Of a stretch of DNA of 64,000 nt, positions 32,933 to 57,420 are shown one piece after another. A program made the translations under genes and the position numbers. The stretch spans positions 1-64,000 of the IMG/VR virus record IMGVR_UViG_3300042484_001840, one strand, 5' to 3'. Origin of the DNA: a virus. Position 1 is the first letter of the stretch, and the number at the start of each line of letters is the position of its first letter. The notes below the pieces were generated by a model that made no database searches, was not told the origin of the DNA, and worked only from the letters and a program-made list of their open reading frames with translations.

Positions 32933-35203
32933 ATGGCTTGGAATTCACGAAACACCAAGGGACTAAATTCATCTGAATCAAAGGCTGCCTCGCTCGGCCC
33001 TGGCGCTCCTGTTGCACAAAACCCCTCAATGGCTGGTAGGGGTTATAAGGATTCTTGGGATATTGAGCGTGCGTACCGAGAGGGTATGCAGAAAGTAACT
33101 TGGGTTTCGCGTTGTATTGATGCAATCTCAGGTAACCAAGCACGGCTTCCAGTCATTCTGCGAAAAGACAATAGTCCTAGTGGTGAAATTTTTACAAAAA
33201 AACATGAAATTTTAACCCTTCTTAATACAAAAGCAAATATTGGCGAAAACTCATTTATTTTTAGGTATCGTTTATCTAGCCAACTTTTAATGTCAAGCCG
33301 TGGCGTTTTCATTGAAAAGATCCGCGGTCGCGATGGACGGTTAATCGCACTCAACTTACTCCCACCGCAACACACTTCCCCGATCCCAGACGCTAAGAAG
33401 TTTGTCTCTGGGTATGAAGTAATGATGCCAAATGGTGGAAAGATCATTATTCCTCCAGACGATGTGACATGGATTCGTCGCCCGCATCCTCTTGACCCTT
33501 ATTTGTCAATGACACCAATGGAATCCGCTGGTATCGCCATTGAAGTAGAAAACTTAGCAAAGTTATACAACCGAAACTTCCTGCTTAATGACGGTAGACC
33601 AGGTGGTCTTTTGGTTCTTCGTTCGGAAATTGACGATGACGACAAAGATGAATTGCGAAGTCGTTTTCGTGGAAATATTAACAAGACTGGTTCAATTACG
33701 GTCATCTCATCTGATGATGGCGCTGACTATATTGACACCTCGTCTAGCCCGCGTGATGCCAGTTACATTGAAATGCGCCAGATAACCAAGGAAGAAATTC
33801 TTGCCGCATTTGGTGTTCCAGAATCTGTTATTGGAAACGCCGCTGGACGAACTTTTAATAATGCCGCTGAGGAACTTCGCGTTTTCTGGATGGAAACAAT
33901 GATGCCTCACCTTGAGCAAATTGCTCGGGCATTAGATGAATTAGACGAAGAATACTATATTGACTTTGAAACTGGGAATATCCCAATTCTAATTATTGCT
34001 AAGCAAGAGCGTGAGCGATATAGCAAAGATGAATTCCAAACTGGTCTTATTAGTATTAATGAATATCGGACCGCCACTGGACGAAAGACCGTAGAGTCAG
34101 ATATTGCCGACAGTCTCCTCCTGTCTCCGAACCTTGCCCCAGTTGCAAATACAGAGAAGCCTTTTGATGCCGCTCAGGTTCAACCTGTTGATATGGCTGG
34201 TGGTCAACCTGGTGCCCAACCTGGTGCCCCTGCTGGTCCTCCAGGCTTACCTATGCTCGGTTCTGAGCCACCGCCAGAAGGAGAGCCAGCCGTGGGCGAG
34301 GCGACTCCAGTGGGCGAACCAGGTCCAACTGACCAGATTGCACCAGGTGCATCGCCGGGGCAAGAAATTGAAGGAATTGCACCTGTTGCCAACGCGGCAC
34401 CGGGTCAACTTTCCGCTCGTCATGGAAGATTTGAAGTCAAAACAGAGAATCAAGCACTTGATGCTTGGGATGTCAAGGCTGAGCAAACCACAGAACGATG
34501 GTCAGAAATTCTTGATCGTAACTTAGAGCGTTATTTTGAAAGACAACAAAGGGTTGTTCTAGAGAAGGCTCTTGGTGCAAAGGCGCGCAAGTTGATGAGT
34601 TCTCGTGAATTGAAGACAGAGGATGTTTTTGATACCCCTGTCTGGAATAGGCAAATTGCCGACGACCTTGGTCCTGTCTATTTGGCAATTCTCCAAGATG
34701 CTTCTGAAATTTCACTAGGCGACTCTCAAAGTAGTAAAGAATTAGATGAGCAACTGGTCAAAGAGTACATTGCACAGCAAGTTGAGCGAACACAAAAGGT
34801 CAACGACACGACCAAAGAGGAAATTGCGGCGGCTTTATTAGTTGCCATGGCAATTGCCAACGAGGACGAATCTGACAGAATGAGCCTATTACGGGCAGCC
34901 TTAGCCGCTATTTTCGCTAATTTACTTGGCAAGCGTCGTCGCGTCATTGCTGAGCATGAGGCTTCTTCGGCTTTTAACGCTGGTACTTACTTTGCTGGTA
35001 AGCAGTTGGGTAAGTCTTCAAAAACTTGGATTACTCGCCGTGACCAGAAGGTTAGGTCTGAGCACACAATTCTTCATGGCAAGAGTATTCCCCTTGGAGA
35101 AGGTTTCATGGAGGATGGCGCTTTATTGAGGTTCCCTGGTGACCCTACCGCTCCGCTTCATTTGACTATCAACTGCCGATGCAGACTGAAATTCAATAAC
35201 TGA
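32933..35203 (+). CDS. HK97-family portal protein fused to a MuF-like head morphogenesis domain
   Basis: Portal motifs (NDGRPGG, EILAAFGVP, INEYR), a Pro/Gly linker, then KTWITRRD.KVR.EH...PGDP...INCRC. Confidence 0.92.
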   Translation: MAWNSRNTKGLNSSESKAASLGPGAPVAQNPSMAGRGYKDSWDIERAYREGMQKVTWVSRCIDAISGNQARLPVILRKDNSPSGEIFTKKHEILTLLNTKANIGENSFIFRYRLSSQLLMSSRGVFIEKIRGRDGRLIALNLLPPQHTSPIPDAKKFVSGYEVMMPNGGKIIIPPDDVTWIRRPHPLDPYLSMTPMESAGIAIEVENLAKLYNRNFLLNDGRPGGLLVLRSEIDDDDKDELRSRFRGNINKTGSITVISSDDGADYIDTSSSPRDASYIEMRQITKEEILAAFGVPESVIGNAAGRTFNNAAEELRVFWMETMMPHLEQIARALDELDEEYYIDFETGNIPILIIAKQERERYSKDEFQTGLISINEYRTATGRKTVESDIADSLLLSPNLAPVANTEKPFDAAQVQPVDMAGGQPGAQPGAPAGPPGLPMLGSEPPPEGEPAVGEATPVGEPGPTDQIAPGASPGQEIEGIAPVANAAPGQLSARHGRFEVKTENQALDAWDVKAEQTTERWSEILDRNLERYFERQQRVVLEKALGAKARKLMSSRELKTEDVFDTPVWNRQIADDLGPVYLAILQDASEISLGDSQSSKELDEQLVKEYIAQQVERTQKVNDTTKEEIAAALLVAMAIANEDESDRMSLLRAALAAIFANLLGKRRRVIAEHEASSAFNAGTYFAGKQLGKSSKTWITRRDQKVRSEHTILHGKSIPLGEGFMEDGALLRFPGDPTAPLHLTINCRCRLKFNN

Positions 35204-35235
35204 CTTTACTGAAAGTCGTACTTTACTGAAAGTAC
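35202..35235 (+). repeat. tandem palindromic repeat (ACTTTACTGAAAGT x2)
   Basis: gacttt-actg-aaagtc followed directly by gtacttt-actg-aaagtac. Confidence 0.8.
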
Positions 35236-35239
35236 CTTC

Positions 35240-35269
35240 CACTAGCAGTACCCCTATTGCGTTTATGAT
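35240..35269 (+). promoter_or_regulatory. CACTAG-N18-TATGAT candidate promoter for the protease operon
   Basis: Intergenic, followed by a GAGGTG RBS. Confidence 0.55.
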
Positions 35270-35296
35270 TAGTGTGTTAGTTACATGAGGTGAAAA

Positions 35297-36982
35297 ATGC
35301 CTGTACAAGAAGCAATAGAATTCAAAGCAATGCCTGGTCAAATTGGTATTGACGAGGCTAAAGGCATCGTTGAATGCTTCGTTGCTGGTGTTGGCAACAA
35401 GGACAGCGTTGGCGATATTGTTCTTTCTGGTGCCTTTACTGAAAGTCTGAAGCGACGCAAGCCACGAGTCGTTTGGGGTCACGACTGGAATCACCCAATT
35501 GGCAAAGTTCTAGAAATTTACGAAGTACCTGCTAATGACCCTCGTTTGCCCGCAAAAATGAAGCGCGCTGGAATTGGTGGTCTTTATGCTCGCGTTCAGT
35601 TTAATTTAAAGGCAGATAAAGGTCGCGAGGCGTTTGCCAATGTCGCGTTCTATGGCGAGGACCAAGAATGGTCAATCGGCTACAAAACTTTAGATGCTAT
35701 TTACGATAATGGTCGCCAAGCAAATCTACTTCGTGAAGTAGAACTATATGAAGTAAGCCCTGTATTGCACGGAGCAAACCAACTGACGGGCACTATTTCT
35801 ATTAAAGCAGCAAAAAAAGACGAGCCAGTAAACTCTTTTGGAAAATCAAAATGGGTGATGTTTGATCGTGAATTTGCAAGTCGCCTGAAAAAGGATTATC
35901 CACAAATTTGGGCGCTTGGTGGAAACATCAAGGGCAATGATCAGTATCGCATATTGACACAGATTGCCGAAGCGGGTGGAGTTGCCAAAAATCAGGCACA
36001 GACAAATGCATTAGAATTGCGTGAAGCATGGGTGGCGCGTCATGCAGGAGATTTCCGACTACCTGGCGTAATTGCTCAAATCAAGTGGTTAGCAGTGGGT
36101 AGTCGCGGTGAAGACCACATGAAAAATGTAGTCCGTGAAGCGATGCAAAAGCAAGATGCCAAAATGAAGGAAAAGACATTCCCAGCAGGGGAAATGGACG
36201 AAGAAGAAATGCCAAAAGGCATGGTAGGTCGTCAAATGGGGATGGCTCGCGCTTTGGCGATGGAACTTGGGAATAGGTTTGGTGGTCCTGCTAAAATTCG
36301 CCATGCTGATTCAAATATGGTTGTTTTTGACCACATCATGAATGGCGTTCCAAGCACCATGCGTGTTGCTTTCCATTTTGACGGTGAACGGTTTATGTTC
36401 GGTAAACCAGACCGCGTAAAGCCTACTGTCGTGTATATGCCAGAAAACGAAGATGAGGAATACTCCAAGCCTTCAAAGCCAATGATGAAACCAACTAATG
36501 CTGGCAATGTTTACGACGATCAGTACGAAGATGAGGATAAGCCCGTCTGGATGAAGCCCAAGGCTTGCGGTTGTGGCGGGAAAACTAATGCGTCTTCAGA
36601 AATTGATGATGCATTTGACAGTTTCAAATCTCTTTTTTCTGAAGAGGTCAAGGCTGGTCGCGCTATCAGTTCTGGCAATCTTGAAAAATTGATGCAGGCT
36701 ATTGAATTGATTCGTGGTGTTGTAGCAGGTGGCGGGCGAGCCGAAATTGAAATGAAAGATCCAAGCGCCAACATCTCAACTAACATTGAAGACTTGTTTG
36801 GAGTTAAGCAATTACTTGACCCAGTTTTTGAATACCATAATTTAAAAACACTCGCAACCGAGACTGGTATTGAAATAAAGGGTATAGTTTCAAGTAGTGC
36901 AATGAGCGCCATCAACACGGCGCTTAGTGTTTCTGATTATGATGCTGAATTAGTAGTGGAAAATAATTACACCGATAACTGA
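35297..36982 (+). CDS. HK97-family prohead protease with C-terminal extra domains
   Basis: DSVGDIVLSGAF, WGHDW..PIG, WSIGY and LYEVSPVLHGAN; later KAGRAIS..N. Confidence 0.92.
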   Translation: MPVQEAIEFKAMPGQIGIDEAKGIVECFVAGVGNKDSVGDIVLSGAFTESLKRRKPRVVWGHDWNHPIGKVLEIYEVPANDPRLPAKMKRAGIGGLYARVQFNLKADKGREAFANVAFYGEDQEWSIGYKTLDAIYDNGRQANLLREVELYEVSPVLHGANQLTGTISIKAAKKDEPVNSFGKSKWVMFDREFASRLKKDYPQIWALGGNIKGNDQYRILTQIAEAGGVAKNQAQTNALELREAWVARHAGDFRLPGVIAQIKWLAVGSRGEDHMKNVVREAMQKQDAKMKEKTFPAGEMDEEEMPKGMVGRQMGMARALAMELGNRFGGPAKIRHADSNMVVFDHIMNGVPSTMRVAFHFDGERFMFGKPDRVKPTVVYMPENEDEEYSKPSKPMMKPTNAGNVYDDQYEDEDKPVWMKPKACGCGGKTNASSEIDDAFDSFKSLFSEEVKAGRAISSGNLEKLMQAIELIRGVVAGGGRAEIEMKDPSANISTNIEDLFGVKQLLDPVFEYHNLKTLATETGIEIKGIVSSSAMSAINTALSVSDYDAELVVENNYTDN

Positions 36983-36996
36983 TTCAGGAAAGTAAT

Positions 36997-38622
36997 ATGG
37001 ACACAGAAAAATCTTTAGTAAAAATAACAACCAAGTATCACTGCATGGTTTCTGGAAAGAAACAAATGGAACCATGCGACGGATGCACCAACCCACAAGG
37101 CTGTCTTTCAAAAGCCATGCAATACAAGGAGAATGAAGAAATGGACGAACTCAACGAAAAGGCTATCGTCAAACTAGATGCAGACGGTGCTGTCGTAAAG
37201 TGCGCCAAGGGTCTTGAGGCTGCTGAATGTGGCTATAAGGCTGGAGCAAAAGTTTGTGGTGCTTGTGGTGCAATGGCATCAATGACCAAGGCTGACATGA
37301 TGCCAGATGCCGAAGAAGACGAAGAAGAAGAAATGTCGGATGACGACACTTCAATGATGCCCGATAAGAAGAAAAAGGGTGGCATGGGTGGCTACGCAAT
37401 GGGCGAAGATGACGAGGAAGAAATGATTCCCGCAAAGAAGAAGGGCGGGATGGGCGAGTATTCCGAAGATGACGAAGAAGAAGTCATGCCCGCAAAGAAG
37501 CGCGGTATGCCGATGGTGGATGCGGAAATGGCTGACGACGAAGAAATGATGCCTACTCCGAAAAAGAAGAAGCCAATGATGATGGTTGAAGACGAAGAGG
37601 AAATGCCTGAAGACGAAGAAATGGGCAAGACTTGGATGATGAAGCCAAGCAAGCGTTCGCGCATGATGGCAATGAAGTCACTTGAAGTTAAGTCTGAAAA
37701 TGACGATGTTTACATGTGTCAGTTGGAACGCAAGTCATACCCGTCAGCAAGTCAGATTTGCGAGAACTGCCCTGGTGGATGCCAGACAGAAGGCGGCATG
37801 CCTGGTTTGTTGGATGTTGAAGGCGTTGGTCTTGGCATTATCGGCGGAAAAGTACTTGACTCTGGTTACTCGTTTGACGACGACCTTTTTGTTGTTCAAC
37901 TTCAGGCAAAAGATGGCAATACATGGGAAATGATTGCCGATGGTCAAAGTGGTGAAATGTTGCGCATGGAGCGCATTAAGACACCAGACTTTGGCATTGA
38001 AGGCAAGTCGGCATTTGATGAAGAAACTGCTTCAGACTTTGGAATCGTTTCAGCATCAGAAGCAGTTGAGATTGCATTGAAGTCGCTTGAAGCAGAATTT
38101 GATGTAGTTGGCGATGTCGTTTCAACTGACTCGGATGTATTCCTCGGTCATGATGTCTACTCAATTGAAGTGGATGCAATGAATGGCAAGTCATACGATG
38201 TCTATGTTTCGCTTGATGGACAGTTTGTTGGTCTTGACGAGTGGACTGCCGATGAAGCAGAAGAAATTGAAGCAGAGGCTGCTGAAATTGCACTGAAGCG
38301 TGCATACGACGAAGAGTCACGCACAGACATGGCTAAGGGCGGTATGGCAATGCCTGACGGCTCATACCCAATCAAGGATGTTGCTGACCTTCGTAATGCA
38401 ATTCAGGCATACGGACGAGCCAAGGACAAGGAAGCAACCAAGGCACACATCATTAAGCGTGCAATGGCTTTGGGTTCGGAAGATTTGATTCCTGAGAATT
38501 GGGTTCCGAAAGATGTTGCTGACAAGTTCTCTAGCGAAAAATCTGAAGACAATCAATTTATGGCATCTTTGATGGAATTTGAACTTCTCGCACAAGAAGA
38601 GAATCTTAAAGACATTCTCTAA
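36997..38622 (+). CDS. acidic multidomain head protein (Cys motifs, Met/Glu/Lys repeats, two PepSY-like domains)
   Basis: CDGC, CGAC and CENC motifs; SASEAVEIAL..GDVV..VYSIEV...GKSYDVYVSLDG (PepSY-like); C-terminal AMPDGSYPI..DLRNAIQAYGR. Confidence 0.7.
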   Translation: MDTEKSLVKITTKYHCMVSGKKQMEPCDGCTNPQGCLSKAMQYKENEEMDELNEKAIVKLDADGAVVKCAKGLEAAECGYKAGAKVCGACGAMASMTKADMMPDAEEDEEEEMSDDDTSMMPDKKKKGGMGGYAMGEDDEEEMIPAKKKGGMGEYSEDDEEEVMPAKKRGMPMVDAEMADDEEMMPTPKKKKPMMMVEDEEEMPEDEEMGKTWMMKPSKRSRMMAMKSLEVKSENDDVYMCQLERKSYPSASQICENCPGGCQTEGGMPGLLDVEGVGLGIIGGKVLDSGYSFDDDLFVVQLQAKDGNTWEMIADGQSGEMLRMERIKTPDFGIEGKSAFDEETASDFGIVSASEAVEIALKSLEAEFDVVGDVVSTDSDVFLGHDVYSIEVDAMNGKSYDVYVSLDGQFVGLDEWTADEAEEIEAEAAEIALKRAYDEESRTDMAKGGMAMPDGSYPIKDVADLRNAIQAYGRAKDKEATKAHIIKRAMALGSEDLIPENWVPKDVADKFSSEKSEDNQFMASLMEFELLAQEENLKDIL

Positions 38623-38652: not shown

Positions 38653-39276
38653 GTGTCGTTTGATTTTTCAAAAGTTAACGGTGTCCAAGTAAAATTAGCA
38701 GTATCTCCTGATGCTATTCCTCAAGAACGCATCACTGGGGATATTCTTAAAGGACGCGGACCCCGACGAGGAAACCTAGAACGCTTACTTCGTTATTGGC
38801 GACCCATTATGCGCAAGCCTGGTGGATTTCGCCGTTGTAAAGTCATTTTGGCAGACCATCCCGAATTATTCCCATTGAATAACATTTGCGCTTGGCTTCA
38901 TCATGAGACTACTGGCTTATGGCCAAACGAGGGATGCCATCACCCTGGTATGAAAAATTGCCGTAAGAAAATTCAAGGTGTCGTTAGAGGTTCAGTTATT
39001 AGCGATAATGAATTTGCTCAGCGTCTTTCACGGCTTCGTGGCGATGGAAAGTCTCTTGACTCCATGGATGGTTACGATTCTGAAGTTGTAACTGAATCAG
39101 ACTTTAATCACGCAAAAACTGTCCTTGATGATTTTATTGAAATGGAAAATAAATTCATTATTTTTATTAATGATGATAATAATTGGCTTCACGAAGGTCA
39201 AGACGAAGATGGAAATTGGTCTCCGCATGATTGGATGAAGCCAGAAGGTCACGAAAAAGACTGCGGATGCGGGTGA
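38653..39276 (+). CDS. head-associated protein with a Cys/His-containing domain
   Basis: GNLERLLRYW..PGGFRRC...CAWLHHETTGLWP; AAGGAG RBS. Confidence 0.65.
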   Translation: MSFDFSKVNGVQVKLAVSPDAIPQERITGDILKGRGPRRGNLERLLRYWRPIMRKPGGFRRCKVILADHPELFPLNNICAWLHHETTGLWPNEGCHHPGMKNCRKKIQGVVRGSVISDNEFAQRLSRLRGDGKSLDSMDGYDSEVVTESDFNHAKTVLDDFIEMENKFIIFINDDNNWLHEGQDEDGNWSPHDWMKPEGHEKDCGCG

Positions 39277-39281
39277 TTTAA

Positions 39282-41219
39282 TTGGAAGATAGTGACCGCA
39301 GGGAAAACCATCCTGACTGGGTTCAGGCACGGGTTAAATCATTTATTCAGGATACAAAAGTCGGCACTGTTCGTTCTGGTTCTGGCGTAGGGCAAGCACT
39401 ACAAGGCGCAGTTTCATATGTAACTCCTGGTGATGTTAGTGGTGTAACTAGCCCTGTTCGCTCTCGTCTTTACTCCGCCATTACTCCTGGTGGTCGTGGC
39501 TTGCGCCCTCGTGTCAATAGACCAAATGAGCGCGGATATCGTTGCCCTGAGGGATATCAGTTTGGTGGTCGCTTTACTGACTCCAAGTGGTCCACATGTG
39601 GACGACAGTTATTTGATATCCCATCACTATCACGAACTTTGCTTCAAATTGCCGATAACGCTATTCGTGTAGGGCGTGGTATTGGTTATCAAAATCCTGA
39701 CACAAACCCTCTTGGTGGTGCCGAAGTTACTGGCGGTTCATTGATTCAGAGCCGTATGGCAAATATTCCTCGTGTTAGTGCTTTTGACAAAAAGAAGCGT
39801 GATGATGGCTTAAAGGCGGCAATTGACGAGTTAGTCAATCCATTGGCTCCAGCGTCAATGATGATTCGGCGCGATGGTTTCCCAATGCAACCAGTCGTTT
39901 CTGCTGGAGAATTACGGAAAGTTCCAGACAATCGCAATATGGAAGGCGCAGTCTTTCTATTGTCTGCATCCAATATTGATTCTTTTGGTGGCGATGAATT
40001 GGGTTTATTGTCAAATACTGGCGTGAGCACTTTGATTTATGTTCTACCTAATGGTTCTACTGTTCGTATGGACAAAACCCGTGCGTTAACCGTAGGCGAA
40101 CGGCGCAAGTTGGGCAAGACTGTCAGTTCGGCATCCAAGATTGACAATAGTAATGATCCATTGGCTCGTCTAAAAATGGTCATTTCAGACTCTGGTGGCG
40201 GAATTTCTATCAACAAAGATTTTTCTAAAATTCGCAATGCTGAAGAAGTTGTTGATTCAGGCAAATTTAAAGGAAAGCCTCGCTGGGTTGCTGAAGCGTT
40301 TCGCAATAGTGGCAAAAAGCGTACTGTTTCTCCCCAGTCAATTGTTGATGATTCCAAGTTGGATTCCGAAACAGAAACTCAAGCAAGTAAAAATATTAAT
40401 GATATTGAAACTGCTATTGAACATATAAACAACGGTGGAAATCTTTCTGATATTAATCCCGCTATTTTGCCTCAGGCTATTCGTCGTGCAAAAGTTTATC
40501 GTCAAAAGAATATTGGATCTGGTCGTATTCTTTTTGAGCGTGCTGACGGCGGTGTTTCTTTTATAGAGGTTTCCAATGGAAAGCGCCTTGAGCATCTTGG
40601 TGCCCATTTTTCTGCCGCTATCGCTGAACATCTTGAATTACCTACTCCTAAAGTCCGCATCATGGGCGAAGGAGACAATCGCCCGTACCTCGTTCAAAAC
40701 ATTGATACTGTCGTGCCAAATGGCAAATTACAATCTATGAAGTTGACAGATATGCCCGCAAAAGACCTTGCTGGTATTTTTGTTTCTGATTACTTGACAG
40801 ATGTTCGCAAACGAAATCCTTCTACTGTTTCGGCTGTTTCTGCTGATGGTAAAGTTCGCGCAATTGCAACGATGAATACCCCCTCGTCGTTGGCTGGTTT
40901 ATCTGCTGAAGAAATGATCAAGCGTCGCTCCATTGTTATTGGCGATTGGGTAAAAGCAGATGGGAATAACATGATTAATGCCATCAAAAACCGCAATGAA
41001 GAAGTTCGTCGTCAAATTCTGGCTGTTTATGAAGATTTAATTCAACGAGCACGCGCTTTTAAATGGGATAGATACATTAAGCAACTACGGTTAGACGGTA
41101 AACTTTCTAGTGCAGAACAAAAGCATATGGATATTGTTAAATCTCTATATGACCAAAGACTAGACAATTTAGCCAAGTCTAAGGAATCTTTTGCTAATAT
41201 TTTGGAGTTAGGCAAATGA
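39282..41219 (+). CDS. RCP-motif protein with a C-terminal HipA/PI3K-like pseudokinase
   Basis: GYRCPEGYQFGGRFTD..CG; FVSDYLTDVRKRNPST sits at the DRHxxN position. Confidence 0.65.
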   Translation: MEDSDRRENHPDWVQARVKSFIQDTKVGTVRSGSGVGQALQGAVSYVTPGDVSGVTSPVRSRLYSAITPGGRGLRPRVNRPNERGYRCPEGYQFGGRFTDSKWSTCGRQLFDIPSLSRTLLQIADNAIRVGRGIGYQNPDTNPLGGAEVTGGSLIQSRMANIPRVSAFDKKKRDDGLKAAIDELVNPLAPASMMIRRDGFPMQPVVSAGELRKVPDNRNMEGAVFLLSASNIDSFGGDELGLLSNTGVSTLIYVLPNGSTVRMDKTRALTVGERRKLGKTVSSASKIDNSNDPLARLKMVISDSGGGISINKDFSKIRNAEEVVDSGKFKGKPRWVAEAFRNSGKKRTVSPQSIVDDSKLDSETETQASKNINDIETAIEHINNGGNLSDINPAILPQAIRRAKVYRQKNIGSGRILFERADGGVSFIEVSNGKRLEHLGAHFSAAIAEHLELPTPKVRIMGEGDNRPYLVQNIDTVVPNGKLQSMKLTDMPAKDLAGIFVSDYLTDVRKRNPSTVSAVSADGKVRAIATMNTPSSLAGLSAEEMIKRRSIVIGDWVKADGNNMINAIKNRNEEVRRQILAVYEDLIQRARAFKWDRYIKQLRLDGKLSSAEQKHMDIVKSLYDQRLDNLAKSKESFANILELGK

Positions 41220-47690: not shown

Positions 47691-50600
47691 CTACCGATTG
47701 CGAAACTTGTCGTCCGCTTGTAAAAGTCATGAACCCCCAAATGTCTACGGACCGTAGGCGGTTTATGATTGAGAGCAAGGCTGCCGAATATCGCAAACAC
47801 ATGGGTCAGCCAAGCGGTTTATTGCAAAAGGGTGCTCGGGCAATATTTGACCCTAAACTTGGTCCGTCTGGTGGATATCGCTGTCCTGAGGGGAGTCAGT
47901 TTGGTGGTTACATTACCGACCGCTTTGGCAGAGGCTGTGGTGGGGGTATTATTCGCCGTGTCGGGCGAGCCTTTGGAAAACTAGGTCGTGGATTAGATAA
48001 CATTGCAGACAGGCGTGACCGTAGTCGTTTGGGTCGTGCCGTCAATCGCCGTAGTAAGCCTAATCGCGTTGCTCGTGCCGCTGGTGCGCTAGAGCGTGGA
48101 GCACAAAGACTTGTTGGCGAATACAAGCCCGGTGACTACAAACCAGGTGACGGTGGTCGTCGTAATAGGCGCAACCTACCTGGTGGACCCTCTTTGCGTC
48201 GTTCTGCTGTTCCACGCAAACCTAAGCGTGAACGCAAACTGCCCAAAGACGGGGACAAGAAGCCTCGCACCCAAGGGGCAACTCCCAAAAAGCGCCCCAT
48301 TATTGAGCGCGCTGCTGAAGGGCTAGAACGCGCTGCTCAGCGTGTTTTGGATGAAGATCGCAAGAAAAGAACACAAGGCGCTAAGCCTGCCAAGCCGAAG
48401 AAGCCTGTTGCTCCCAAGGTTCCTTCACTGAAGCCAAATGTTTCAGAAGATAAAAAACGAAACATCACCGACATTAATGATATTGACTGGGATAATTTAA
48501 CTCCCGAACAGCGTGACGAAATTCAAGGGATTCGTTGGGATGCCATTAGTGACCTTGAAGACAAAATGTCTAAGTATATTGGCGTTCCAAAAGAGCGCAT
48601 GGACCCTGTTCTATTTTTAGACAGAAATGAACGAAACAGAAATAATAAAAAATACCAAGCAGATGTGCTTAAGTGGAGACAATTACACAACAACTTTCAA
48701 GATATGCCAGCAGAAGCAATTAAAGAAATTGACTGGACCGATGGAGAACGCAAGAAGATTCTTGATGTTGTTAATGGGGATGTAAAGCCCGATCTTGCAA
48801 AAGACGGTGGAGAATTTGACTGGGATAATTTAACTCCAGAACAGCGTGGCAAAATCAAGGACATTGCAAACAATGCGCTAGAAGACGACAAAAAAGCACT
48901 TCTGAAACATTTTGGTGCTGCGAGTTGGAATAATGACAGAGTTAATCGTGCTATAGATTTAGCAGACAAAGGATTCATAAAGAAGGATAAAGCCAACGAA
49001 ATAGAAAAAATTGCATTGAGATGGAATCTGTTGCAAACCCAGTGGAATGACGAACCTAATCTTGCTATTAACGACATTAATTGGACAGACGACCAGCGTC
49101 AACAAATCCGTGATGCAATTGGCATAGAGGCTCCTAAGAAGCCCAAGACCCGTGGTGCTGACTTCTGGGAACGACGCAAGAATAACAAGCCGATCAAGCC
49201 TGAAGAATTAGATGTTGAGGATGCTCCAGAGATTTTCTCAAGCAAGCCAGACGGCACATCTGAAAGTAATCGTCTTGTCAAGGCTTGGGAACAAGCATAT
49301 GGAGACGAAATAGATAAATACTTTGCTGAGAAAAATGTAGATCGCCTTGAAAAATTAAAAAATTCAATAGATTTTATTCTCAATAAAAAAGAAATGAATC
49401 TATCTCCTGCTATGCGTCGGATGCTTCAAGAAAAAATTAATGACATAGACAAGAAGGTTGCTGCTCTCCGTGTGCGAAAAGCACGAGGTGCACGCACTGC
49501 CACACCAAAGCCAAAACTTCCCAGTCTTGTAGGTAAGCCAGTAAGCCGTCAATCAAAAATTACTCGTATTAAAGATAATGTCATTGATGCTTTGCGCATT
49601 AAAAACAGGCGTGAGAATGCTATGGGCGACTTTGCTCCAGACGCAATTGGTGATGGCGTACTTGCTTTCCCTGAAAACATTGTTAACGATGACATTAAAA
49701 ATGTGGCAGATGCAGTCAAGTGGCTTGATGACGGAAAATCATTATACGAAATTCCACAACATTATTGGCTAGAGGCAGTGACTGAGCATGTAGATAATGC
49801 AAGAAATCCACAATACAATAAAATTCCAATTAATAACCCTGGTGTTATTAAAAAGATTTTCATGTTTGAAAAATTAGACAAAGATGGAAAAGGCACTGGA
49901 ACTGGTGTCGTTTTTGCTCGTGCTCCAGGTAATGCAAGAGACGGCATGGGCGAGGTTATGGGTCAACAAGTCCTTAATGCTCTTGGTATGAATGTTGCTC
50001 CTGCGCGATTTGACGGAATTGTAAGAGACCCCGGCGGTGAAACTCCTGTTGCCGTAATGCCATTTGCTTGGAATAGGGCAGCACAAGGAGACATGCAACG
50101 ACCAGTAGCGATGAATTTTGACCGAAAGTTGTTTGATCAATTTGAAGATAAAGGATTCCCTGTACGACTAGGAAATTTATTAGGCAACTATTTCATGGGT
50201 GTTGGGGATAGGCACACAAATAACGCAATGATGGCAATTGTTGATGGTCAGCCTCATATTGTTCCTATTGACTTGGGCTGGAATGGTAACAGAAAAGATT
50301 TTTACCTTTATGCAAAGGGTGGATTTCAAGGTTTCTCAATGGACCCTGACTTATATGACAATATTGCAAATCACTTAGCCACACTTGATCCCGCAGAAGC
50401 AAAAAAACAACGCGATAAACTTGTTGAAGTTTTTGATGGAATGGTCTTGCGTGGTGATGCAATTGTTGCCCAAGGTAAAGATAAATTCATTAAAGATGCT
50501 GTAGCAATGATGCATCTTGGTGCTGATCCAGTTAAGAACGAGTCTTTTGTAGTAGAAATTGACAGAAAAGAACTTGAATCTACGATGGAGAAAAAAGCAT

Positions 50601-51937
50601 CGGATATATTTGATGCTTTAGAAGCAAATGTTGCGCAGGCGAAAAATGAAAGAGCGCGTTTATTTGATGCATGGGGAATGGAAGATGTTCCTTCATTGGG
50701 AGTACTTGAAGTAGTCCGCCCCACTAAGCCAAAGACACCAAAGGTATCTACACCCAAGGTATCCACACCTAAGGCACCTACCTCAAATGCATCCAAACCA
50801 AAAAGTGCTCTAGAAAGAATTATTGCACCACTTCGTATCAGTAATCCACAGAAAAGAAACCCACGAGTACCAATCTTGGCGGAAGTAAAATCTGGTGAAT
50901 TAATTGCTCGTCCAAAAATGATAGAAAATCCAAAAATTAAAAACCGCCAAAATGCCAAAGACTGGCTTGACAATGGTGGGCTAATTGAGGAAGTTCCGCA
51001 AAGATTTTGGGCACAAGCACTTTCTGACCATGTAAATGGTAACGCGGCAGTGAAACAGTATAAAGAAATTGACCCATCTGATGAAGTAGGTCAAGGTGCA
51101 GTTAAGACTACAAGAATTTACTTGGCACTTGATGAAAATGGTAAACCAACTGCCCAAGGGTTCCTCATTCAACGCGAAGGTGGAGTAGATAAACTCGGTG
51201 GGGCATTAGACAGAAATAATGTGGCAGAGTTGGTTGTAGCAAACATGCTCAATGCCTTTGGACTTAACTACGAACCAGCAAGACTAGATGGTCAACTTGA
51301 CGAAGATGGAAAAGAAGATTTAAATAAAGTTCCTGCTGTTGTTATTCCATTTGCATGGAATGGCGGACCAAACTATGTGAATGTTCAAAAGCCAAGTGGG
51401 TGGAATGCCGCCAACTTTGACAGGGATATTTTTGATGGTCTTGCTGATAAGGCATACCCACAGCGACTAGCAGCCTTTTTGGGAAATCTTGCTTTTGCCA
51501 TTCCTGATAGGCATGACCAAAATCAAATGGGTCAAATTATTGATGGTGTTCCTATGGTCGTTCCAATTGACTTTGGTTGGGCAGGCAAATACGGTCCAAT
51601 GGATTTCTATGATTATTTAGATGGCGAATTTGAAGAACTTGAACCTGACTTTTTTATGGACATGCAAAATCATTTGAATGGTTTAGACAAACAAACAAAA
51701 ATTGAACAAACACAAGCAATCAAACAAGTTTGGGACAATATTGAATCAAAACTAGAAGAAACATTTAATCGCGGGAAAGATCAATTTATTAACGATTTCC
51801 TTGATTTCTTAACACCAGAACAACGAGCAAACACAAGAGTGGTTGATCAGGCAACATATAAACTTAAGCAAATGTATGAACTTTTAGAAACACAATACAA
51901 TGAAATTCAAATTAATCGTCCTGAATTTCTTAAGTAA
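47687..51937 (+). CDS. 1416-aa polyvalent protein with RCP motif and two tandem HipA/PI3K-like kinase domains
   Basis: GDRHTNN..VPIDLGW (~50207) and PDRHDQN..VPIDFGW (~51506). Confidence 0.8.
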   Translation: MTTDCETCRPLVKVMNPQMSTDRRRFMIESKAAEYRKHMGQPSGLLQKGARAIFDPKLGPSGGYRCPEGSQFGGYITDRFGRGCGGGIIRRVGRAFGKLGRGLDNIADRRDRSRLGRAVNRRSKPNRVARAAGALERGAQRLVGEYKPGDYKPGDGGRRNRRNLPGGPSLRRSAVPRKPKRERKLPKDGDKKPRTQGATPKKRPIIERAAEGLERAAQRVLDEDRKKRTQGAKPAKPKKPVAPKVPSLKPNVSEDKKRNITDINDIDWDNLTPEQRDEIQGIRWDAISDLEDKMSKYIGVPKERMDPVLFLDRNERNRNNKKYQADVLKWRQLHNNFQDMPAEAIKEIDWTDGERKKILDVVNGDVKPDLAKDGGEFDWDNLTPEQRGKIKDIANNALEDDKKALLKHFGAASWNNDRVNRAIDLADKGFIKKDKANEIEKIALRWNLLQTQWNDEPNLAINDINWTDDQRQQIRDAIGIEAPKKPKTRGADFWERRKNNKPIKPEELDVEDAPEIFSSKPDGTSESNRLVKAWEQAYGDEIDKYFAEKNVDRLEKLKNSIDFILNKKEMNLSPAMRRMLQEKINDIDKKVAALRVRKARGARTATPKPKLPSLVGKPVSRQSKITRIKDNVIDALRIKNRRENAMGDFAPDAIGDGVLAFPENIVNDDIKNVADAVKWLDDGKSLYEIPQHYWLEAVTEHVDNARNPQYNKIPINNPGVIKKIFMFEKLDKDGKGTGTGVVFARAPGNARDGMGEVMGQQVLNALGMNVAPARFDGIVRDPGGETPVAVMPFAWNRAAQGDMQRPVAMNFDRKLFDQFEDKGFPVRLGNLLGNYFMGVGDRHTNNAMMAIVDGQPHIVPIDLGWNGNRKDFYLYAKGGFQGFSMDPDLYDNIANHLATLDPAEAKKQRDKLVEVFDGMVLRGDAIVAQGKDKFIKDAVAMMHLGADPVKNESFVVEIDRKELESTMEKKASDIFDALEANVAQAKNERARLFDAWGMEDVPSLGVLEVVRPTKPKTPKVSTPKVSTPKAPTSNASKPKSALERIIAPLRISNPQKRNPRVPILAEVKSGELIARPKMIENPKIKNRQNAKDWLDNGGLIEEVPQRFWAQALSDHVNGNAAVKQYKEIDPSDEVGQGAVKTTRIYLALDENGKPTAQGFLIQREGGVDKLGGALDRNNVAELVVANMLNAFGLNYEPARLDGQLDEDGKEDLNKVPAVVIPFAWNGGPNYVNVQKPSGWNAANFDRDIFDGLADKAYPQRLAAFLGNLAFAIPDRHDQNQMGQIIDGVPMVVPIDFGWAGKYGPMDFYDYLDGEFEELEPDFFMDMQNHLNGLDKQTKIEQTQAIKQVWDNIESKLEETFNRGKDQFINDFLDFLTPEQRANTRVVDQATYKLKQMYELLETQYNEIQINRPEFLK

Positions 51938-52709: not shown

Positions 52710-52710
52710 A

Positions 52711-55700
52711 ATGGCAAAGATGCGCGCGTCATCCAAAGAAGATGCAATGAAGATTGCACGCTATGTTGGCTGTTCTGGCGCACACCAAGATAAGAAGGGG
52801 AATTGGATACCTTGTGCCAATCCCGAAGATCTGGTGGAGATCCTAGATAAATCTGCAAGAAACTCTACTGAAAAGTTAACCAAGAAAAAGCGTCGTCGGT
52901 TTGTTAATGGTCAATGGGAAAGACTCGGAGAACGAGGTCCTATCAGTATTGACACAATTGACGGCGGTGGACTTGTGTCTGGTATGGGCAAGTCATTAAC
53001 TGAATGGTTCAAAGAGGAATGGGTTGATATTTCAAGACCCAAAAAGGGTGGCGGGTTTGAGGCGTGCGGACGAGATGACGCAGACAAGGGCAAATACCCT
53101 AAATGCGTACCAGCGTCACGAGCAAGCAATATGTCAGAGGAAGAAATTCGTTCTGCGGTTTCACGAAAAAGAAGAGCAGAATCTACACAAAGTAGAGATG
53201 GCAAAAAACCGATTTATGTTCCTACTGATAAAAAGAACGACCCATTTGTTTTGAACGAAAAATCAGCAATACCCACAAATCCAGAACTTTATGCACGGGT
53301 TAAGGCTGAAGCAAAAAAGAAGTTTGATGTTTATCCTTCTGCTTACGCAAACGCTTGGTTAGTAAGGGAATACAAAAAACGGGGTGGCGGATATCGTTCT
53401 GAAAAAGCAGACGATGGCGATTATGAAGACTTTGTTGAAGACCTCACAGAAATGCAACTATCCGATTTTATTGATTGGGTAGATCAAAAAGAAAAAGCAG
53501 AAAAGGTCTGCCCGCCAGCAACATCAGATATTGGCTTAAATATCAAGAATCGTCAGAATGCTATCAACACGGCTGGTTATGGTCCCCTAAACCCTAAAGA
53601 ACCCAATGTGGACTTTTGGGAAAAGAAGGCAAAACGCTGGTCTGTAACGATTGAAGAATCCAAGAAACAAAAGTGCGGAAACTGTGCTGTCTTTATTAAG
53701 ACTCCTCGGATTCTTGAATGCATTGAGTCGGGTCTTGGTAATGAGGCTGGAGACACTGCTTGGGATGCAATCAATGCTGGTGACCTTGGATACTGCGAGG
53801 CATTTGACTTCAAGTGTGCTTCTGCCCGTACCTGTGATGCATGGGTCGGTGGAGGTCCAGTAACTGTTGAAAAGGGTAAGCAAGAGGAAAAGGCTGATAC
53901 TTCCACGATTATTATTGGTCGTGCTAAGCCTCGCATTGGTGACCCCGATGTCTACACCGACCCCAACTCTGCTCGTCTGCGTTCTCGTAAACTTGGTTGC
54001 ATTGGTATCGCTCGTAGAGAAACGCCAGATGGAGAAGTTGTCTGGACACCCTGCACAAATATCTCAGATCAACGCAGATACCAAGGCGAAACACCCTTAG
54101 GTCAGCGAGATGAGGCTCGGCGTTTTGCTGACAGACTTGCTGAAGTTGGCGGTCCTGATCGTAAGCGCCGACGCATGCGTAAGTACAAGAGCCTTGAATA
54201 CACGACAGATATAAAGGCTTTTCGGACTTTGGGTTCAAGTATGGGCGGTCGCGGGATCAGTGGTAGTTGTCGTGAATTTACTGGAGTTGATGGCGATGGT
54301 GATGGATTCGTATGTAATCCCGCCTCTCGCGAGGACGACCTACCCCTTGCGGACACCCGAAAAATTTTTAAGCGTGGCGGTAAAATGCTGTCAAGACAAG
54401 AATTGGTAGAGCAAGATGAAACAATTCTTAATATGTTTGGCAAAGGTGAATCTTTATCAAAAATCGGTAAAGAAGTAGATCTTGACCCAAAAGAAGTTGA
54501 TTTTTTAATCAATGGTTTCCGCAAAAATAATCCAAAATCTGCATTCACATTATTCAATAATCGCAATATCAATATTCAAAAAAAGCGTGAAGAGCGCAGG
54601 AAATTAGTACTTGAGAATGTTAGAAAAGCCACAGATGCCAACCGCAAGTTAAATGCAAGAGGCGAAGACCCTACGCCAGAATCTGATGATGATCTTGATT
54701 TTACCCTTGATCCAGATAAGGTTCCTCAATATCTTAAAAAGAATTTTGCTAAATATATGCAACGCTTAAAAGACCCTGAATTTGCTGATGAAATAAAAAA
54801 AATTGCTGATGATTTGCGTGCTGGTCTTGGTTTGGCTGGAACGGCAAAAAAATACAAACGAGACTCAGCATTTATAGAAATTGTTCGTAGAAATGAAAAA
54901 ATTACAAAAACAAAAAAACTACAAAAAAACATTAGAGAATCAGAAGTTCCTGATTTTAATAATGATACTGATGACCCCGATTTTACTCTTGACCCAGAAA
55001 AAATTCCTCAATTTTTAAAAAGGGGTTTTGCTGGTAATGTTAGGCTAGCAAGAAGTCCTGAGTTTGCGGAAGAAAGAAAGAAAATTGCTGATGACTTGCT
55101 CCTTGGTCTTGGAATTAATGCCGTAAGATTAAAATATAATCGCGATACTTCATTGGTAGATGTAGTTCGCAGGCTTGAAAAAATTCCAAAATCAAAAGAA
55201 CTCAAAAAAGTTGATCCTAAAATTAGACAGGATGTTGTTGACCTTGTAGATAAATTGATTAAAGATGATAATCCATTCATGTCGGTTGCCGAAATCGCAA
55301 AAGAATTTAAAATTACTGGAATGGATGCGCGTCGGATTATTAATGCTGCAAAATTGGAAAAATATTTTGATTTGCACAATAAATATACAGACGCAAAAAG
55401 AAAAAAACTTTTTGCTGAAGTTGCTGAACTTCATAAACTTGATCTTACATATGAAGAAATAGGCAAACGCTTAGGAATTAGTGGTGATGCAGTAAATCAT
55501 ATTGTAAAAAAAATGAAACTACCCCTAAGACGACCTGGCGGGGGAGGTGGTCTTCCTGGAGTAATAAAAAGAGGTGGCGTAATGATTCCTCGTTCATTGG
55601 CAATGAAACAAAACAAGGAAATGCTTGACTTGTATCAGCGTGGCTATTCTCTTACAGATATTGCTAAAGAAATGGGAATCGGTGTTGCTACCGTTAGGGA

Positions 55701-55959
55701 AATTATTAAAAAATTTGCAGACAATGACAAAGTTCGTATTCGTGGAAATAATGTTACTGAAAAAGAAAATCAAATAAGAAAACTTTTGAAAGAAGGTTTG
55801 CACCCTCGTGAAATTATGCGAGACATTATAGGTAATGTTACATATAGTAGAATTTTAGAAATTGCAAAAGAAGAAGATATTAAAATTCCTCCTATGCGTA
55901 AATTTAAATCCGACAATCAAAACTTCAATTCATTTGAGAACAATGATTATTTTTACTAA
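52711..55959 (+). CDS. mosaic polyprotein: DUF3721-like x2, DUF5872-like, HiPIP-like Cys domain, DGDGDG, multi-HTH tail
   Basis: GCSGAH..WIPC; LTEWFKEEWVD; YPSAYANAWLVREYKKRGG; CGNC..GYC..C....CDAW; about seven HTH-like motifs. Confidence 0.7.
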   Translation: MAKMRASSKEDAMKIARYVGCSGAHQDKKGNWIPCANPEDLVEILDKSARNSTEKLTKKKRRRFVNGQWERLGERGPISIDTIDGGGLVSGMGKSLTEWFKEEWVDISRPKKGGGFEACGRDDADKGKYPKCVPASRASNMSEEEIRSAVSRKRRAESTQSRDGKKPIYVPTDKKNDPFVLNEKSAIPTNPELYARVKAEAKKKFDVYPSAYANAWLVREYKKRGGGYRSEKADDGDYEDFVEDLTEMQLSDFIDWVDQKEKAEKVCPPATSDIGLNIKNRQNAINTAGYGPLNPKEPNVDFWEKKAKRWSVTIEESKKQKCGNCAVFIKTPRILECIESGLGNEAGDTAWDAINAGDLGYCEAFDFKCASARTCDAWVGGGPVTVEKGKQEEKADTSTIIIGRAKPRIGDPDVYTDPNSARLRSRKLGCIGIARRETPDGEVVWTPCTNISDQRRYQGETPLGQRDEARRFADRLAEVGGPDRKRRRMRKYKSLEYTTDIKAFRTLGSSMGGRGISGSCREFTGVDGDGDGFVCNPASREDDLPLADTRKIFKRGGKMLSRQELVEQDETILNMFGKGESLSKIGKEVDLDPKEVDFLINGFRKNNPKSAFTLFNNRNINIQKKREERRKLVLENVRKATDANRKLNARGEDPTPESDDDLDFTLDPDKVPQYLKKNFAKYMQRLKDPEFADEIKKIADDLRAGLGLAGTAKKYKRDSAFIEIVRRNEKITKTKKLQKNIRESEVPDFNNDTDDPDFTLDPEKIPQFLKRGFAGNVRLARSPEFAEERKKIADDLLLGLGINAVRLKYNRDTSLVDVVRRLEKIPKSKELKKVDPKIRQDVVDLVDKLIKDDNPFMSVAEIAKEFKITGMDARRIINAAKLEKYFDLHNKYTDAKRKKLFAEVAELHKLDLTYEEIGKRLGISGDAVNHIVKKMKLPLRRPGGGGGLPGVIKRGGVMIPRSLAMKQNKEMLDLYQRGYSLTDIAKEMGIGVATVREIIKKFADNDKVRIRGNNVTEKENQIRKLLKEGLHPREIMRDIIGNVTYSRILEIAKEEDIKIPPMRKFKSDNQNFNSFENNDYFY

Positions 55960-56004
55960 TATTTAACAATTTTTGTAATATAACTGTCAAAAAGTGCGGT
56001 GTTA

Positions 56005-56034
56005 CACTAGAAGCACTTACATATCTGTTATTGT
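56005..56034 (+). promoter_or_regulatory. CACTAG-N18-TATTGT candidate promoter for the major capsid gene
   Basis: Intergenic, same spacing as the other copies. Confidence 0.55.
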
Positions 56035-56121
56035 AAATTGAGACGCGGTAACTGGGTGCTTACCTGAGCATTACTGGTCAGAACAACCAAACCAAATCAA
56101 CATTCTCAAGGAGAGAAAATT

Positions 56122-57420
56122 ATGTCAGTAGACGAAGGTCGCCTCACAGAATTGCAGTCTGCACTGCGTTCAAAAATGGCTGATAACAAGGCTATCGCTG
56201 ATTCGTTCAGCATTGAAGATGGCGTTGTACAGGTCACCACCCAGCAAAAGTCAGCGTTTGACAAGAACATGTCAGACATCAAGGAAATCAAGAGCCTCAT
56301 TGAGGGTCTTGAGTCCATGCGTCAGGTTGAGCAGTGGGGTTCCGCCCCTATCAGCGATTCAATCGCTGCTACTGCCGCTGCTGCAGGATTCCACATTCCC
56401 CGTGGCGCTAAGAGCCTCGGTGAATTGTTTATTGATTCGCCTGAATTCAAGTCGCTTGCTGGCGGTAAGAATGGCGCAAACATGCCCAGCCCGTTCCAGT
56501 TGAACGGTAGCGTTGCAGGACTCGGTTCATTCAGCCAGAAGGACTTGTACTCGTCATTGCCGAGCGGTACCCCTGGTTCGTTCGGTAGCATCCAACGCGA
56601 CCCGATTGTTGTGCCCCCCATGCGTACCAAGCGCGTTCGTGACTTGTTCCCAACCCGCACCACCACTGCCGCCGTTATTGAATACTTCCGTATGACTGGC
56701 TTCACCAACGCCGCTTCAACCGTTGCCGAGCGCAATGGTGGAAACACTGCATTCGGTGCAAAGCCACAGTCGGGCTTCACTTTCGCTGGCGCTCAAGCCC
56801 CCGTTCGTACCTTGGCTCACTGGGAAGCCGCTCACCGCAATGTTCTTGCCGATGAACCGCAATTGCGTTCAATCATTGACAACGAATTGATGTACGGTCT
56901 GCGTCTTGCCGAAGATGACCAAATCCTCAACGGTGACGGAACTGGCGAAAACCTTGAAGGTGTTCTCCAGACCTCGGGCATCCAGACATACGCAAAGGGC
57001 GACAGTGGCGTTGCTTCTGACAACTATGCTGACGCGATTCGTCGTGCGGCTACCTTGTCGTTCCTCGCTTACTACGAGCCAACGGGCGTTGTCATGCACC
57101 CGAATGACTGGGAGCAGATTGAATTGTCCAAGGACGACAATGGTCAGTACCTCGTTGCTGTCAGCGTCGCCCTCGGTGGCGAACCCCGCTTGTGGCGCAT
57201 CCCCGTTGTGGAAACTCCAGCAATTGCTGAAGGAACCGCTTTGGTTGGTGCCTTCGGTACGGGCGCACAGTTGTACGACCGTGAGCAGGCTTCAATTCGC
57301 ATCAGCGAACAGCATGCTGACTTCTTCGTGCGTAACGCCATCGTGATTCTTGCCGAACAGCGCCTTGCGCTCGCCGTCAAGCGTCCTGAGGCATTCGTTT
57401 CTGTGGACTTCACTTCCTGA
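56122..57420 (+). CDS. major capsid protein, HK97 fold with N-terminal delta domain
   Basis: VRTLAHW, EDDQILNGDGTG, VMHPNDW, LWRIPVVET and FVRNAIVILAEQRLALAVKRPEAF; AAGGAG RBS. Confidence 0.95.
   Translation: MSVDEGRLTELQSALRSKMADNKAIADSFSIEDGVVQVTTQQKSAFDKNMSDIKEIKSLIEGLESMRQVEQWGSAPISDSIAATAAAAGFHIPRGAKSLGELFIDSPEFKSLAGGKNGANMPSPFQLNGSVAGLGSFSQKDLYSSLPSGTPGSFGSIQRDPIVVPPMRTKRVRDLFPTRTTTAAVIEYFRMTGFTNAASTVAERNGGNTAFGAKPQSGFTFAGAQAPVRTLAHWEAAHRNVLADEPQLRSIIDNELMYGLRLAEDDQILNGDGTGENLEGVLQTSGIQTYAKGDSGVASDNYADAIRRAATLSFLAYYEPTGVVMHPNDWEQIELSKDDNGQYLVAVSVALGGEPRLWRIPVVETPAIAEGTALVGAFGTGAQLYDREQASIRISEQHADFFVRNAIVILAEQRLALAVKRPEAFVSVDFTS

Follow-up and report, generated by a model that had tools for sequence, protein, structure and literature searches.

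Cleavage of several head proteins by one prohead protease at a short consensus is already established for phages T4 and phiKZ/SPN3US, as is cleavage after lysine for HK97. The T4 protease gp21, of family S77, cuts at (L/I)-x-Glu and removes the capsid-targeting leaders of internal proteins (reviewed in PMC9026906), and the cut motif of phiKZ/SPN3US is Ala-x-Glu. Work on SPN3US describes the cleavage of head proteins during assembly by gp245, the prohead protease of the phiKZ/SPN3US type, and the ejection of numerous head proteins into the cell (PMC10052503, PMC7411985, PMC5694885). HK97 is cut after Lys and before Ser-Leu, at K103/S104 (PMC10275583), and polyvalent phage proteins have been proposed to cut themselves by means of an embedded metallopeptidase domain (Iyer et al. 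2017, PMC5512222). Here we analyze the head module of an uncultured phage, contained in a window that comprises bases 1–64000 of the 145,042-bp virus record IMGVR_UViG_3300042484_001840 of IMG/VR. The module consists, in order, of genes for a portal–MuF protein, an S78 prohead protease, proteins of 541, 207, 645, 2041, 125, 1416, 141, 109, and 1082 amino acids (aa), and the capsid protein, and thus places nine unknown or cargo proteins of 109 to 2041 aa between the S78 protease and an HK97-fold capsid. A short lysine motif is over-represented in the head proteins only. We consider it probable that this motif is the preferred cut signal of the phage's own S78 protease, which would cleave after Lys in the sequence hydrophobic-Glu-x-Lys↓Ser/Ala, often Lys↓Ser-Leu (↓, candidate cut; preceding residues are numbered P4 to P1 and the following residue is P1'). 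We did not find this predicted consensus in the literature.

The original prediction, made from the DNA sequence of this window, held that a recurring xExK[A/S/G] motif marks domain boundaries at which the prohead protease dices the products of the whole operon into modules. The 22 strings listed in its support are all present in the named proteins at correct coordinates, but only 10 fit the pattern; the remaining 12 depart from it by carrying Glu at P2 or Asp at P3, by lacking an acidic residue, or by having T, R, or D at P1', and 13 of the 23 strict E.K[ASG] matches are absent from the list. The enrichment itself is borne out. Relative to per-protein shuffles (500 for E.K[ASG]), the 12 open reading frames (ORFs) of the head set contain 23 matches versus 10.5 ± 3.1 expected (z = 4.0; none of the 500 shuffles reaches 23), whereas the 33 other ORFs of the window contain 2 versus 6.3 expected. 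E.K[AS] occurs 16 times in the head ORFs (6.7 expected) and 14 times in the rest of the genome (14.4 expected), and the more restrictive [ILVMF]E.K[AS] 8 times (1.7) and 4 times (4.0), respectively. Control patterns with Arg at P1 (E.R[AS]: head ORFs 3, expected 5.6; rest of genome 11, expected 13.6), Asp at P3 (D.K[AS]: 8, 7.5; 12, 14.3), T, V, or N at P1' (E.K[TVN]: 2, 6.7; 19, 18.5), or Glu at P4 (E..K[AS]: 2, 6.8; 14, 14.5) have no excess in the head ORFs. Glu at P2 (EK[AS]) is not significantly enriched in the window (10 vs 6.9), but is in the pooled relatives (87 vs 56.5). In an unbiased scan of all 8000 tripeptides, K-S-L ranks first in the head module (13 vs 2.5, P = 2.7e-6), and its frequency in the 146 remaining genes is close to expectation (10 vs 8.6). 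The 13 KSL sites are encoded by 10 different 9-mers that use both Ser codon families; because the codons differ between sites, a DNA-level motif is ruled out and the motif acts at the level of the protein.

Head proteins that are rich in Lys and Glu and contain repeats could produce such an excess by composition, particularly for a motif picked after the fact, and this possibility deserves consideration given that the original prediction derived the motif from these same sequences, that the sites in the 2041-aa and 1416-aa proteins are paralogous, and that several of the IMG/VR replicates share a common ancestry. However, the excess survives shuffling confined to blocks of 15 or 30 residues, and together with the flat control patterns this rules out a composition artefact; with the unbiased KSL scan, these results largely refute a statistical origin, which we regard as very improbable. 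In addition, the excess recurs in two cultured phages that are too diverged to share most sites. The window capsid is 47–50% identical to those of Brevibacterium phage Cantare and of Gordonia phages DalanDe, ChisanaKitsune, and GMA6. The portal-to-capsid genes of DalanDe contain 18 E.K[AS] matches versus 4.1 expected (z = 7.1) and its neck and tail genes 2 versus 1.9, and the head genes of Cantare contain 6 matches to E.K[AS][LIVMA] versus 0.9 expected and its other genes 0 versus 0.7. The excess is restricted to the head genes of these phages (z = 5.7 to 7.1) and the control patterns are flat in both. With capsids ~50% identical to that of the window, DalanDe and Cantare are far more diverged than the IMG/VR relatives and are the cleaner replicate. 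We also fetched the head modules of ten related IMG/VR contigs (G001–G010) for comparison. E.K[AS] exceeds expectation in all ten, and KSL ranks 1, 1, 2, 4, 5, and 10 of 8000 in six and between 210 and 831 in four. As discussed below, these ten contigs mostly show that sites were inherited and kept.

The excess is concentrated in the lineage-conserved parts of the head proteins (E.K[AS], 11 vs 3.2; KSL, 10 vs 1.1), and conserved sites are found in otherwise unrelated families (Table 1).

Table 1. Genes and candidate cut sites of the head module, with other features mentioned in the text (positions in the window).
Feature	Position	Strand	Basis or remark
Large terminase gene	31388-32854	-	Faces the plus-strand head module
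Portal protein, 756 aa, C-terminal Mu F-like domain	32933..35203	+	Pfam Phage_portal 2.5e-49, Phage_Mu_F 7.5e-07
Portal SESK17↓AA, candidate N-terminal trimming site	32972..32989	+	K then A/S in 11/11 aligned portals
Portal WDVK515↓AE, length-variable linker ahead of conserved helix	34466..34483	+	K in 7/10, small P1' in 7/10 orthologues
Prohead serine protease, 561 aa	35297..36982	+	Pfam Peptidase_S78 2.8e-11; phrog_80 ("head maturation protease") 5e-31
Protease IEFK10↓AM, candidate N-terminal propeptide cut	35315..35332	+	[E/N][F/Y]K then [A/S] in 8/8 aligned proteases
Protease ISIK170↓AA, end of catalytic domain	35795..35812	+	[I/L]SIK in 8/8 aligned proteases, divergence directly after
Protease FK444↓SL and EEVK452↓AG, start of conserved C-terminal module	36617..36658	+	BLAST matches to relatives start at 444-450
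541-aa head protein	36997..38622	+	Weak Pfam PepSY match; orthologues in 10/10 relatives
541-aa low-complexity stretch, residues 100-215	37290-37640		Acidic EEEM(M)P alternating with basic KKKK units
541-aa AMK227↓SLEVK232↓SE, junction of low-complexity stretch and conserved C-terminal part	37666..37698	+	MG.K↓S in 9/10 orthologues
541-aa IEGK337↓SA, gap-rich loop	37996..38013	+	K then S[L/A] in 8/11 sequences, Glu usually at P3
207-aa head protein	38653..39276	+	Separate gene in window
207-aa VQVK14↓LA, end of short variable leader	38683..38700	+	K↓A after leader in 7/7 separate orthologues
207-aa GDGK133↓SL, ahead of variable linker	39040..39057	+	K↓SL in 5/8 sequences
645-aa cargo-type protein, shared N-terminal cassette	39282..41219	+	Orthologue comparison
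2041-aa cargo protein	41216..47341	+	Weak PI3/PI4-kinase-like match
2041-aa IEYK144↓AL, end of ~140-aa leader, before RCP.G.QFGG	41636..41653	+	Column K in 2041/1416 family
1416-aa cargo protein, N-terminus paralogous to 2041-aa protein	47687..51937	+	Sequence comparison
1416-aa IESK31↓AA, paralogous to 2041-aa K144	47768..47785	+	Family alignment
Paralogous N-terminal cassettes of 645-, 2041-, and 1416-aa proteins	39282-39700, 41216-42100, 47687-48300		Leader, [F/Y]K↓A, RCP.G.QFGG..TD...C
1082-aa modular protein	52711..55959	+	DUF3721, phrog_23735, DUF5872, conserved 399-491 module, C-terminal helix-turn-helix (HTH) repeats
1082-aa GMGK94↓SL, left edge of 300-aa inserted cassette	52981..52998	+	phrog_23735 (standalone family) begins at residue 96
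1082-aa LNEK184↓SA	53251..53268	+	Pfam DUF5872 starts at residue 188; Glu at P2 instead of P3
1082-aa QEEK394↓AD, right edge of inserted cassette	53881..53898	+	Alignment with G006 homologue
HK97-fold major capsid protein, 432 aa, N-terminal scaffolding (delta) domain	56122..57420	+	Pfam Phage_capsid 1.6e-47
Capsid KEIK57↓SL, within delta-domain helix	56281..56298	+	K in 9/10, S/G in 10/10 orthologues
Capsid RGAK97↓SL, right after variable Ala-rich linker	56401..56418	+	Conservation 0.24 upstream, 0.77 downstream
Capsid PEFK110↓SL	56440..56457	+	E108, F109, K110 invariant (30-sequence alignment), S/A/T at P1'
Capsid FSQK140↓DL, lysine nearest in position to HK97 K103/S104	56530..56547	+	K140 and D141 invariant

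The capsid protein shares 72–99% identity with its counterparts on the best 80 among 307 related contigs of IMG/VR, and it matches HK97 gp5 (4.5e-55) from residue 134 onward. An AlphaFold2 model built from a 30-sequence alignment is poor overall (mean predicted local distance difference test [pLDDT] score of 44), with helices predicted confidently at residues 5–27 and 40–74 (pLDDT 72–88) and with low confidence at 79–100; the HK97 gp5 match together with these helices supports an HK97 fold preceded by a helical extension of at least ~100 residues. Sequence searches of the capsid structure 9lbm did not usefully show the residues before the conserved SIGQQF. K97, K110, and K140 are candidate sites for removal of the delta domain after Lys. 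The linker that precedes K97 varies in length, this residue is Lys in most of the 80 relatives, and the equivalent sequence in Cantare is MEAK↓SLGE. HMMER alignments place HK97 S104 at residues 141–145 of the window capsid.

The protease matches PF04586 (Peptidase_S78) over residues 24–167 with 44.3 bits (cutoff 21), and in the orthologue alignment the S78 domain (~11–170) is followed by a middle domain, then by a CGCG motif, and finally by a C-terminal module that is conserved from ~444 onward. The His of VWGH and the Ser of EWSIGY are invariant in eight orthologues and also present in Cantare; judging from the family motifs, these are putative equivalents of the HK97 catalytic residues. A search of sequences of solved structures gave no relative of the window protease. 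Candidate sites lie at both ends of the catalytic domain and at the start of the C-terminal module. The Cantare counterpart of the K10 site is LQYK↓G, the ISIK170 site does not have Glu at P3, and E.K↓AGR is retained at K452 in six of seven orthologues. The CGCG(CG) motif recurs at the ends of modules, i.e., near residue 425 of the protease (ACGCGG), at the C-terminus of the 207-aa protein (DCGCG followed by the stop codon), and at equivalent positions in relatives; as tripeptides, CGC and GCG rank near the top in G001, G006, G008, and G009. This motif may bind metal. In the portal protein, conservation rises from 0.43 upstream to 0.68 downstream of K17, and the WDVK515 site has Asp instead of Glu at P3.

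In the 541-aa protein, a Cys-rich N-terminus is followed by a low-complexity stretch of acidic and basic units and then by a conserved C-terminal part that contains a PepSY-like repeat. The K227/K232 sites lie at the junction of the latter two parts; in contrast, K434 and K362, the latter not listed in the original prediction, lie within a conserved helix of the PepSY-like repeat and away from any border. The 207-aa protein begins with a variable leader, which spans ~4–30 residues in the separately encoded orthologues and ends in a site with Glu at P3 in six of seven (SVK↓A in G006). The protease ORF of G008, G009, and G010 incorporates the 207-aa homologue, placed after the middle domain and ahead of the C-terminal module, and fused forms keep the site before the domain (DMK↓A in G008 and EVK↓A in G009). 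In G002, G003, and G005, the protease is the N-terminus of an ORF of 1652–2089 aa. The gene has thus been split or fused at junctions that bear the motif. In G003 and G005, the linker after the K133 site has another K↓SL at its distal end.

The 645-, 2041-, and 1416-aa proteins share a paralogous N-terminal cassette, beyond which the 2041- and 1416-aa proteins have a basic, Pro-rich region with an ALERGAQRLVG-type helix present in five or six copies. Only the first ~300 residues of the 2041-aa protein are conserved in relatives. Among 15 orthologues and paralogues in the 2041-aa/1416-aa family, 13 have [F/Y]K followed by A or V, and the leader that precedes this site ranges from 10 to 140 residues. 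The 645-aa orthologues have [F/Y]K followed by A, G, or C before the RCP motif in 7 of 10 cases, four of which have Glu at P3; the window sequence is ARVK↓SF. Kinase-like matches in the 2041-aa and 1416-aa proteins are below the cutoff.

The 1082-aa protein is the best case, by sequence comparison, of modules apparently joined at lysine sites. If residues 95–394 are removed, the remainder aligns colinearly with its homologue in G006, with the two flanks meeting at one K↓S junction, and G007 has a different cassette at this junction, flanked by VSGK↓AD and QSEK↓SF. The position held by the 1082-aa protein, directly before the capsid gene, is occupied in G004 by a 3462-aa ORF (L090:7208-17596) that contains NUDIX, HTH, DnaJ, and Zeta-toxin domains and is, from its domain content, clearly of the polyvalent protein type.

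Several lines of evidence lead us to favor cleavage by the S78 protease. The excess is confined to the head module, is residue specific, survives local shuffling, and is replicated in DalanDe and Cantare; the same motif is conserved in unrelated families, including the capsid, the protease, the leaders of the 207-aa and cargo proteins, and portal K17; K97 of the capsid follows a variable linker, and the cassette of the 1082-aa protein is located exactly between two lysine sites; HK97 provides a precedent at K103/S104; and an S78 domain is encoded in the module of the window. We propose that the capsid protein, with its N-terminal scaffolding domain, would assemble around the portal, enclosing the 561-aa protease together with the 541-aa and 207-aa proteins and those cargo proteins that have the common N-terminal cassette. 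The protease would then cleave after Lys, chopping the scaffolding domain at K57, K97, K110, and perhaps K140, trimming itself at K10, K170, and K444/K452, and trimming the N-terminus of the portal at K17. The 541-aa and 207-aa proteins would also be cleaved, leaders would be removed from the 2041-aa, the 1416-aa, and probably the 645-aa cargo proteins, and at least some modules of the 1082-aa protein would be separated.

A number of observations weigh against this proposal. Lys at capsid position 97 is replaced by R, Y, N, Q, G, or M in some relatives, and K140, although the nearest lysine to the HK97 cut, has Asp at P1' and falls outside the motif. The ten IMG/VR contigs were rejected as independent replication, much of their excess consisting of homologous, inherited sites: the parts without BLAST similarity to the window, i.e., non-homologous cargo, have no excess of E.K[AS] (30 vs 29.8) and the IMG/VR relatives therefore give no fresh evidence, although KS[LIVM] remains enriched in these parts (59 vs 36.3). 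In the literature, we found neither cleavage data for the window phage or its relatives, including proteomics of GMA6-type phages, nor a cleavage consensus for S78 proteases, and nothing usable on the sites of T5 pb11. The placement of motifs at domain boundaries, as originally predicted, holds for capsid K97, portal K17, and K94, K184, and K394 of the 1082-aa protein but is not general; 14 motif sites compared with 176 other lysines for conservation upstream versus downstream did not differ significantly in marking linker-to-domain transitions (p = 0.57), and IALK-RA of the 541-aa protein, named as a boundary, is located in a conserved helix of the PepSY-like repeat. The variable bodies of the cargo proteins in the window have no excess (E.K[AS], 5 vs 3.6; KSL, 2 vs 1.3), and on this basis the 2041-aa and 1416-aa proteins resemble proteins from which a leader is removed at the N-terminus rather than polyproteins that are cut up into modules. 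The original idea of dicing throughout the operon is thus retained in part: a Lys motif occurs in the capsid and portal as well as in the protease and further head proteins, is enriched only in the head module, and is accompanied by an S78 protease gene, but its excess does not extend to the variable cargo bodies.

Some copies of the motif lie within conserved helices, such as capsid K57 in the delta-domain helix and the copies in the PepSY-like helix, and may be structural, which also counts against cleavage and raises an alternative in which the motif is never cut. It would instead be a docking or assembly signal, either a short linear motif that binds the scaffolding domain, the protease, or the inner capsid surface or a feature that recurs at helix starts in scaffold-like coiled coils. 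Conserved and probably helical segments hold capsid K57 and K110, protease K452 (E.K-AGR..S..N..KL), and the copies in the PepSY-like helix of the 541-aa protein; 6 of the 13 KSL sites have Ser-x-x-Glu/Asp, a classic helix-capping pattern; and the motif is kept 4 to 10 residues from the start codon in separately encoded proteins, where a targeting tag fits as well as a cut. However, helix caps and coiled coils are common to proteins of every kind, and outside the head module the genome has no excess; Arg is not exchanged for Lys, or Asp for Glu, which better matches an enzyme pocket than a general structural preference; and the HK97 cut is itself K↓SL. We therefore judge an uncut signal to be unlikely, while regarding it as the alternative that deserves the most attention.

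Cleavage at the motif could also be performed by a protease other than the S78 enzyme, either a host enzyme, as in Staphylococcus phage 80alpha, which relies on a host protease, or a peptidase carried by the cargo. The tie between the motif and the S78 enzyme is indirect, and private linker motifs in G002–G005 hint at a second processing activity. Nevertheless, domain-profile searches of the head ORFs found no peptidase domain besides S78, including no embedded self-processing peptidase; the motif is shared by actinobacterial isolates and by phages from aquatic metagenomes, so that the hosts concerned are very different, which points to a phage-encoded enzyme; and the N-terminal S78 domain is 47–79% identical across the IMG/VR lineage. 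We consider a different protease to be quite improbable.

The private motifs are short, phage specific, and over-represented in basic, linker-like stretches of the giant portal-to-capsid ORFs of G002–G005 (loci L085–L092). ISGRM(G) occurs 13 times in G004 (0.008 expected), [S/G]GLAS[T/R] 15 times in G002 (0.3 expected), GMRS 8 times in G003, and GMRS and GLRS 6 times each in G005; none is found in the capsids of the relatives, and the window and G001 are without them. In G004, the RNase_T domain (829–1009) is bracketed by copies at 781 and 1065. A related pattern, [ILVM][SGA]G[RK], prompted by ISGRMG in G004 and GGLVSGK in homologues of the 1082-aa protein, was tried and rejected, being unenriched in the window (4 vs 4.5). 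These linker motifs may be a second, private processing code. We tentatively extend this to a two-layer code, which we hold to be possible but doubtful, in which the shared hydrophobic-Glu-x-Lys↓Ser/Ala would be read by S78 in the capsid, protease, portal, and cargo leaders, and phage-specific signals in linkers would separate the giant polyvalent cargo enzymes. Signals of the second layer would include ISGRMG (13 copies), GLAS (15), and GMRS/GLRS (12) in the relatives and the cassette-flanking K↓S/A junctions of the 1082-aa protein in the window.

In the region of genes 19–27 of DalanDe (L002), genes annotated as RNA ligase, minor tail proteins, and lysin B are located between the portal gene and a gene for a 1633-aa "capsid maturation protease," and the 1633-aa protein contains several E-x-K↓S/A sites. 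These annotations may need review if the products are internal to the head. The first 11,341 bases of the window record (1–11341) are repeated at 133702–145042 with 42 mismatches, giving a unit genome of ~133.7 kb; the repeat is either a long terminal repeat or the product of a concatemer or variant assembly. It encodes a 1205-aa collagen-repeat protein and a 935-aa beta-propeller protein, both likely fibres.

If the S78 protease reads the motif as proposed, the mature virion proteins of a large, mostly uncultured lineage (307 related IMG/VR contigs) would be predictable from sequence, the leader cassette would identify the packaged members among the unknown giant proteins, and a consensus like those of the T4- and phiKZ-type enzymes would become available for S78-type head proteases. 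Under a two-layer code, cassettes would carry their own cut sites and the contents of the mature head would be predictable from the genome. Since Cantare and DalanDe are cultured and have the excess as well, the prediction is open to direct experimental test.

In comparison with known systems, the head module resembles those encoding polyvalent proteins in having large, multidomain proteins beside virion genes, a MuF domain on the portal, and swappable modules, and the giant ORFs of G004 contain RNase_T, NUDIX, DnaJ, and Zeta_toxin domains; it differs in that no embedded metallopeptidase was found in the window head ORFs, the candidate enzyme being the prohead protease. As in phiKZ/SPN3US, a large set of head and ejection proteins would be cut at a consensus motif recognizable in the sequence; however, the protease type and the motif differ, and the cuts in phiKZ/SPN3US were shown by mass spectrometry whereas those in the window are predicted from sequence alone. 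The arrangement is similar to that of T4 in that a single head protease would act on capsid, scaffold, and internal proteins through a consensus of three residues, and the leader-plus-site layout of the 207-, 2041-, and 1416-aa proteins recalls T4 internal proteins, which lose a short N-terminal leader. In contrast to T4, the window enzyme is S78 rather than S77, P1 is Lys rather than Glu, and the leaders span 4 to 140 residues. Relative to HK97, the window protease is larger (561 aa) and has additional middle and C-terminal modules, ~19 kb of extra genes separate it from the capsid gene, the motif has Glu at P3 and a hydrophobic residue at P4 and is also present in the portal and protease as well as in about six other head proteins, and K140, aligned nearest to HK97 K103, is followed by Asp. 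Nonetheless, the likeness to HK97 gp4/gp5 is evident: an S78 protease gene and a gene for an HK97-fold capsid with an N-terminal helical scaffolding domain are in the same module, and three K↓SL sites lie within the first 110 residues of the window capsid, matching the K↓SL at which HK97 is cut.

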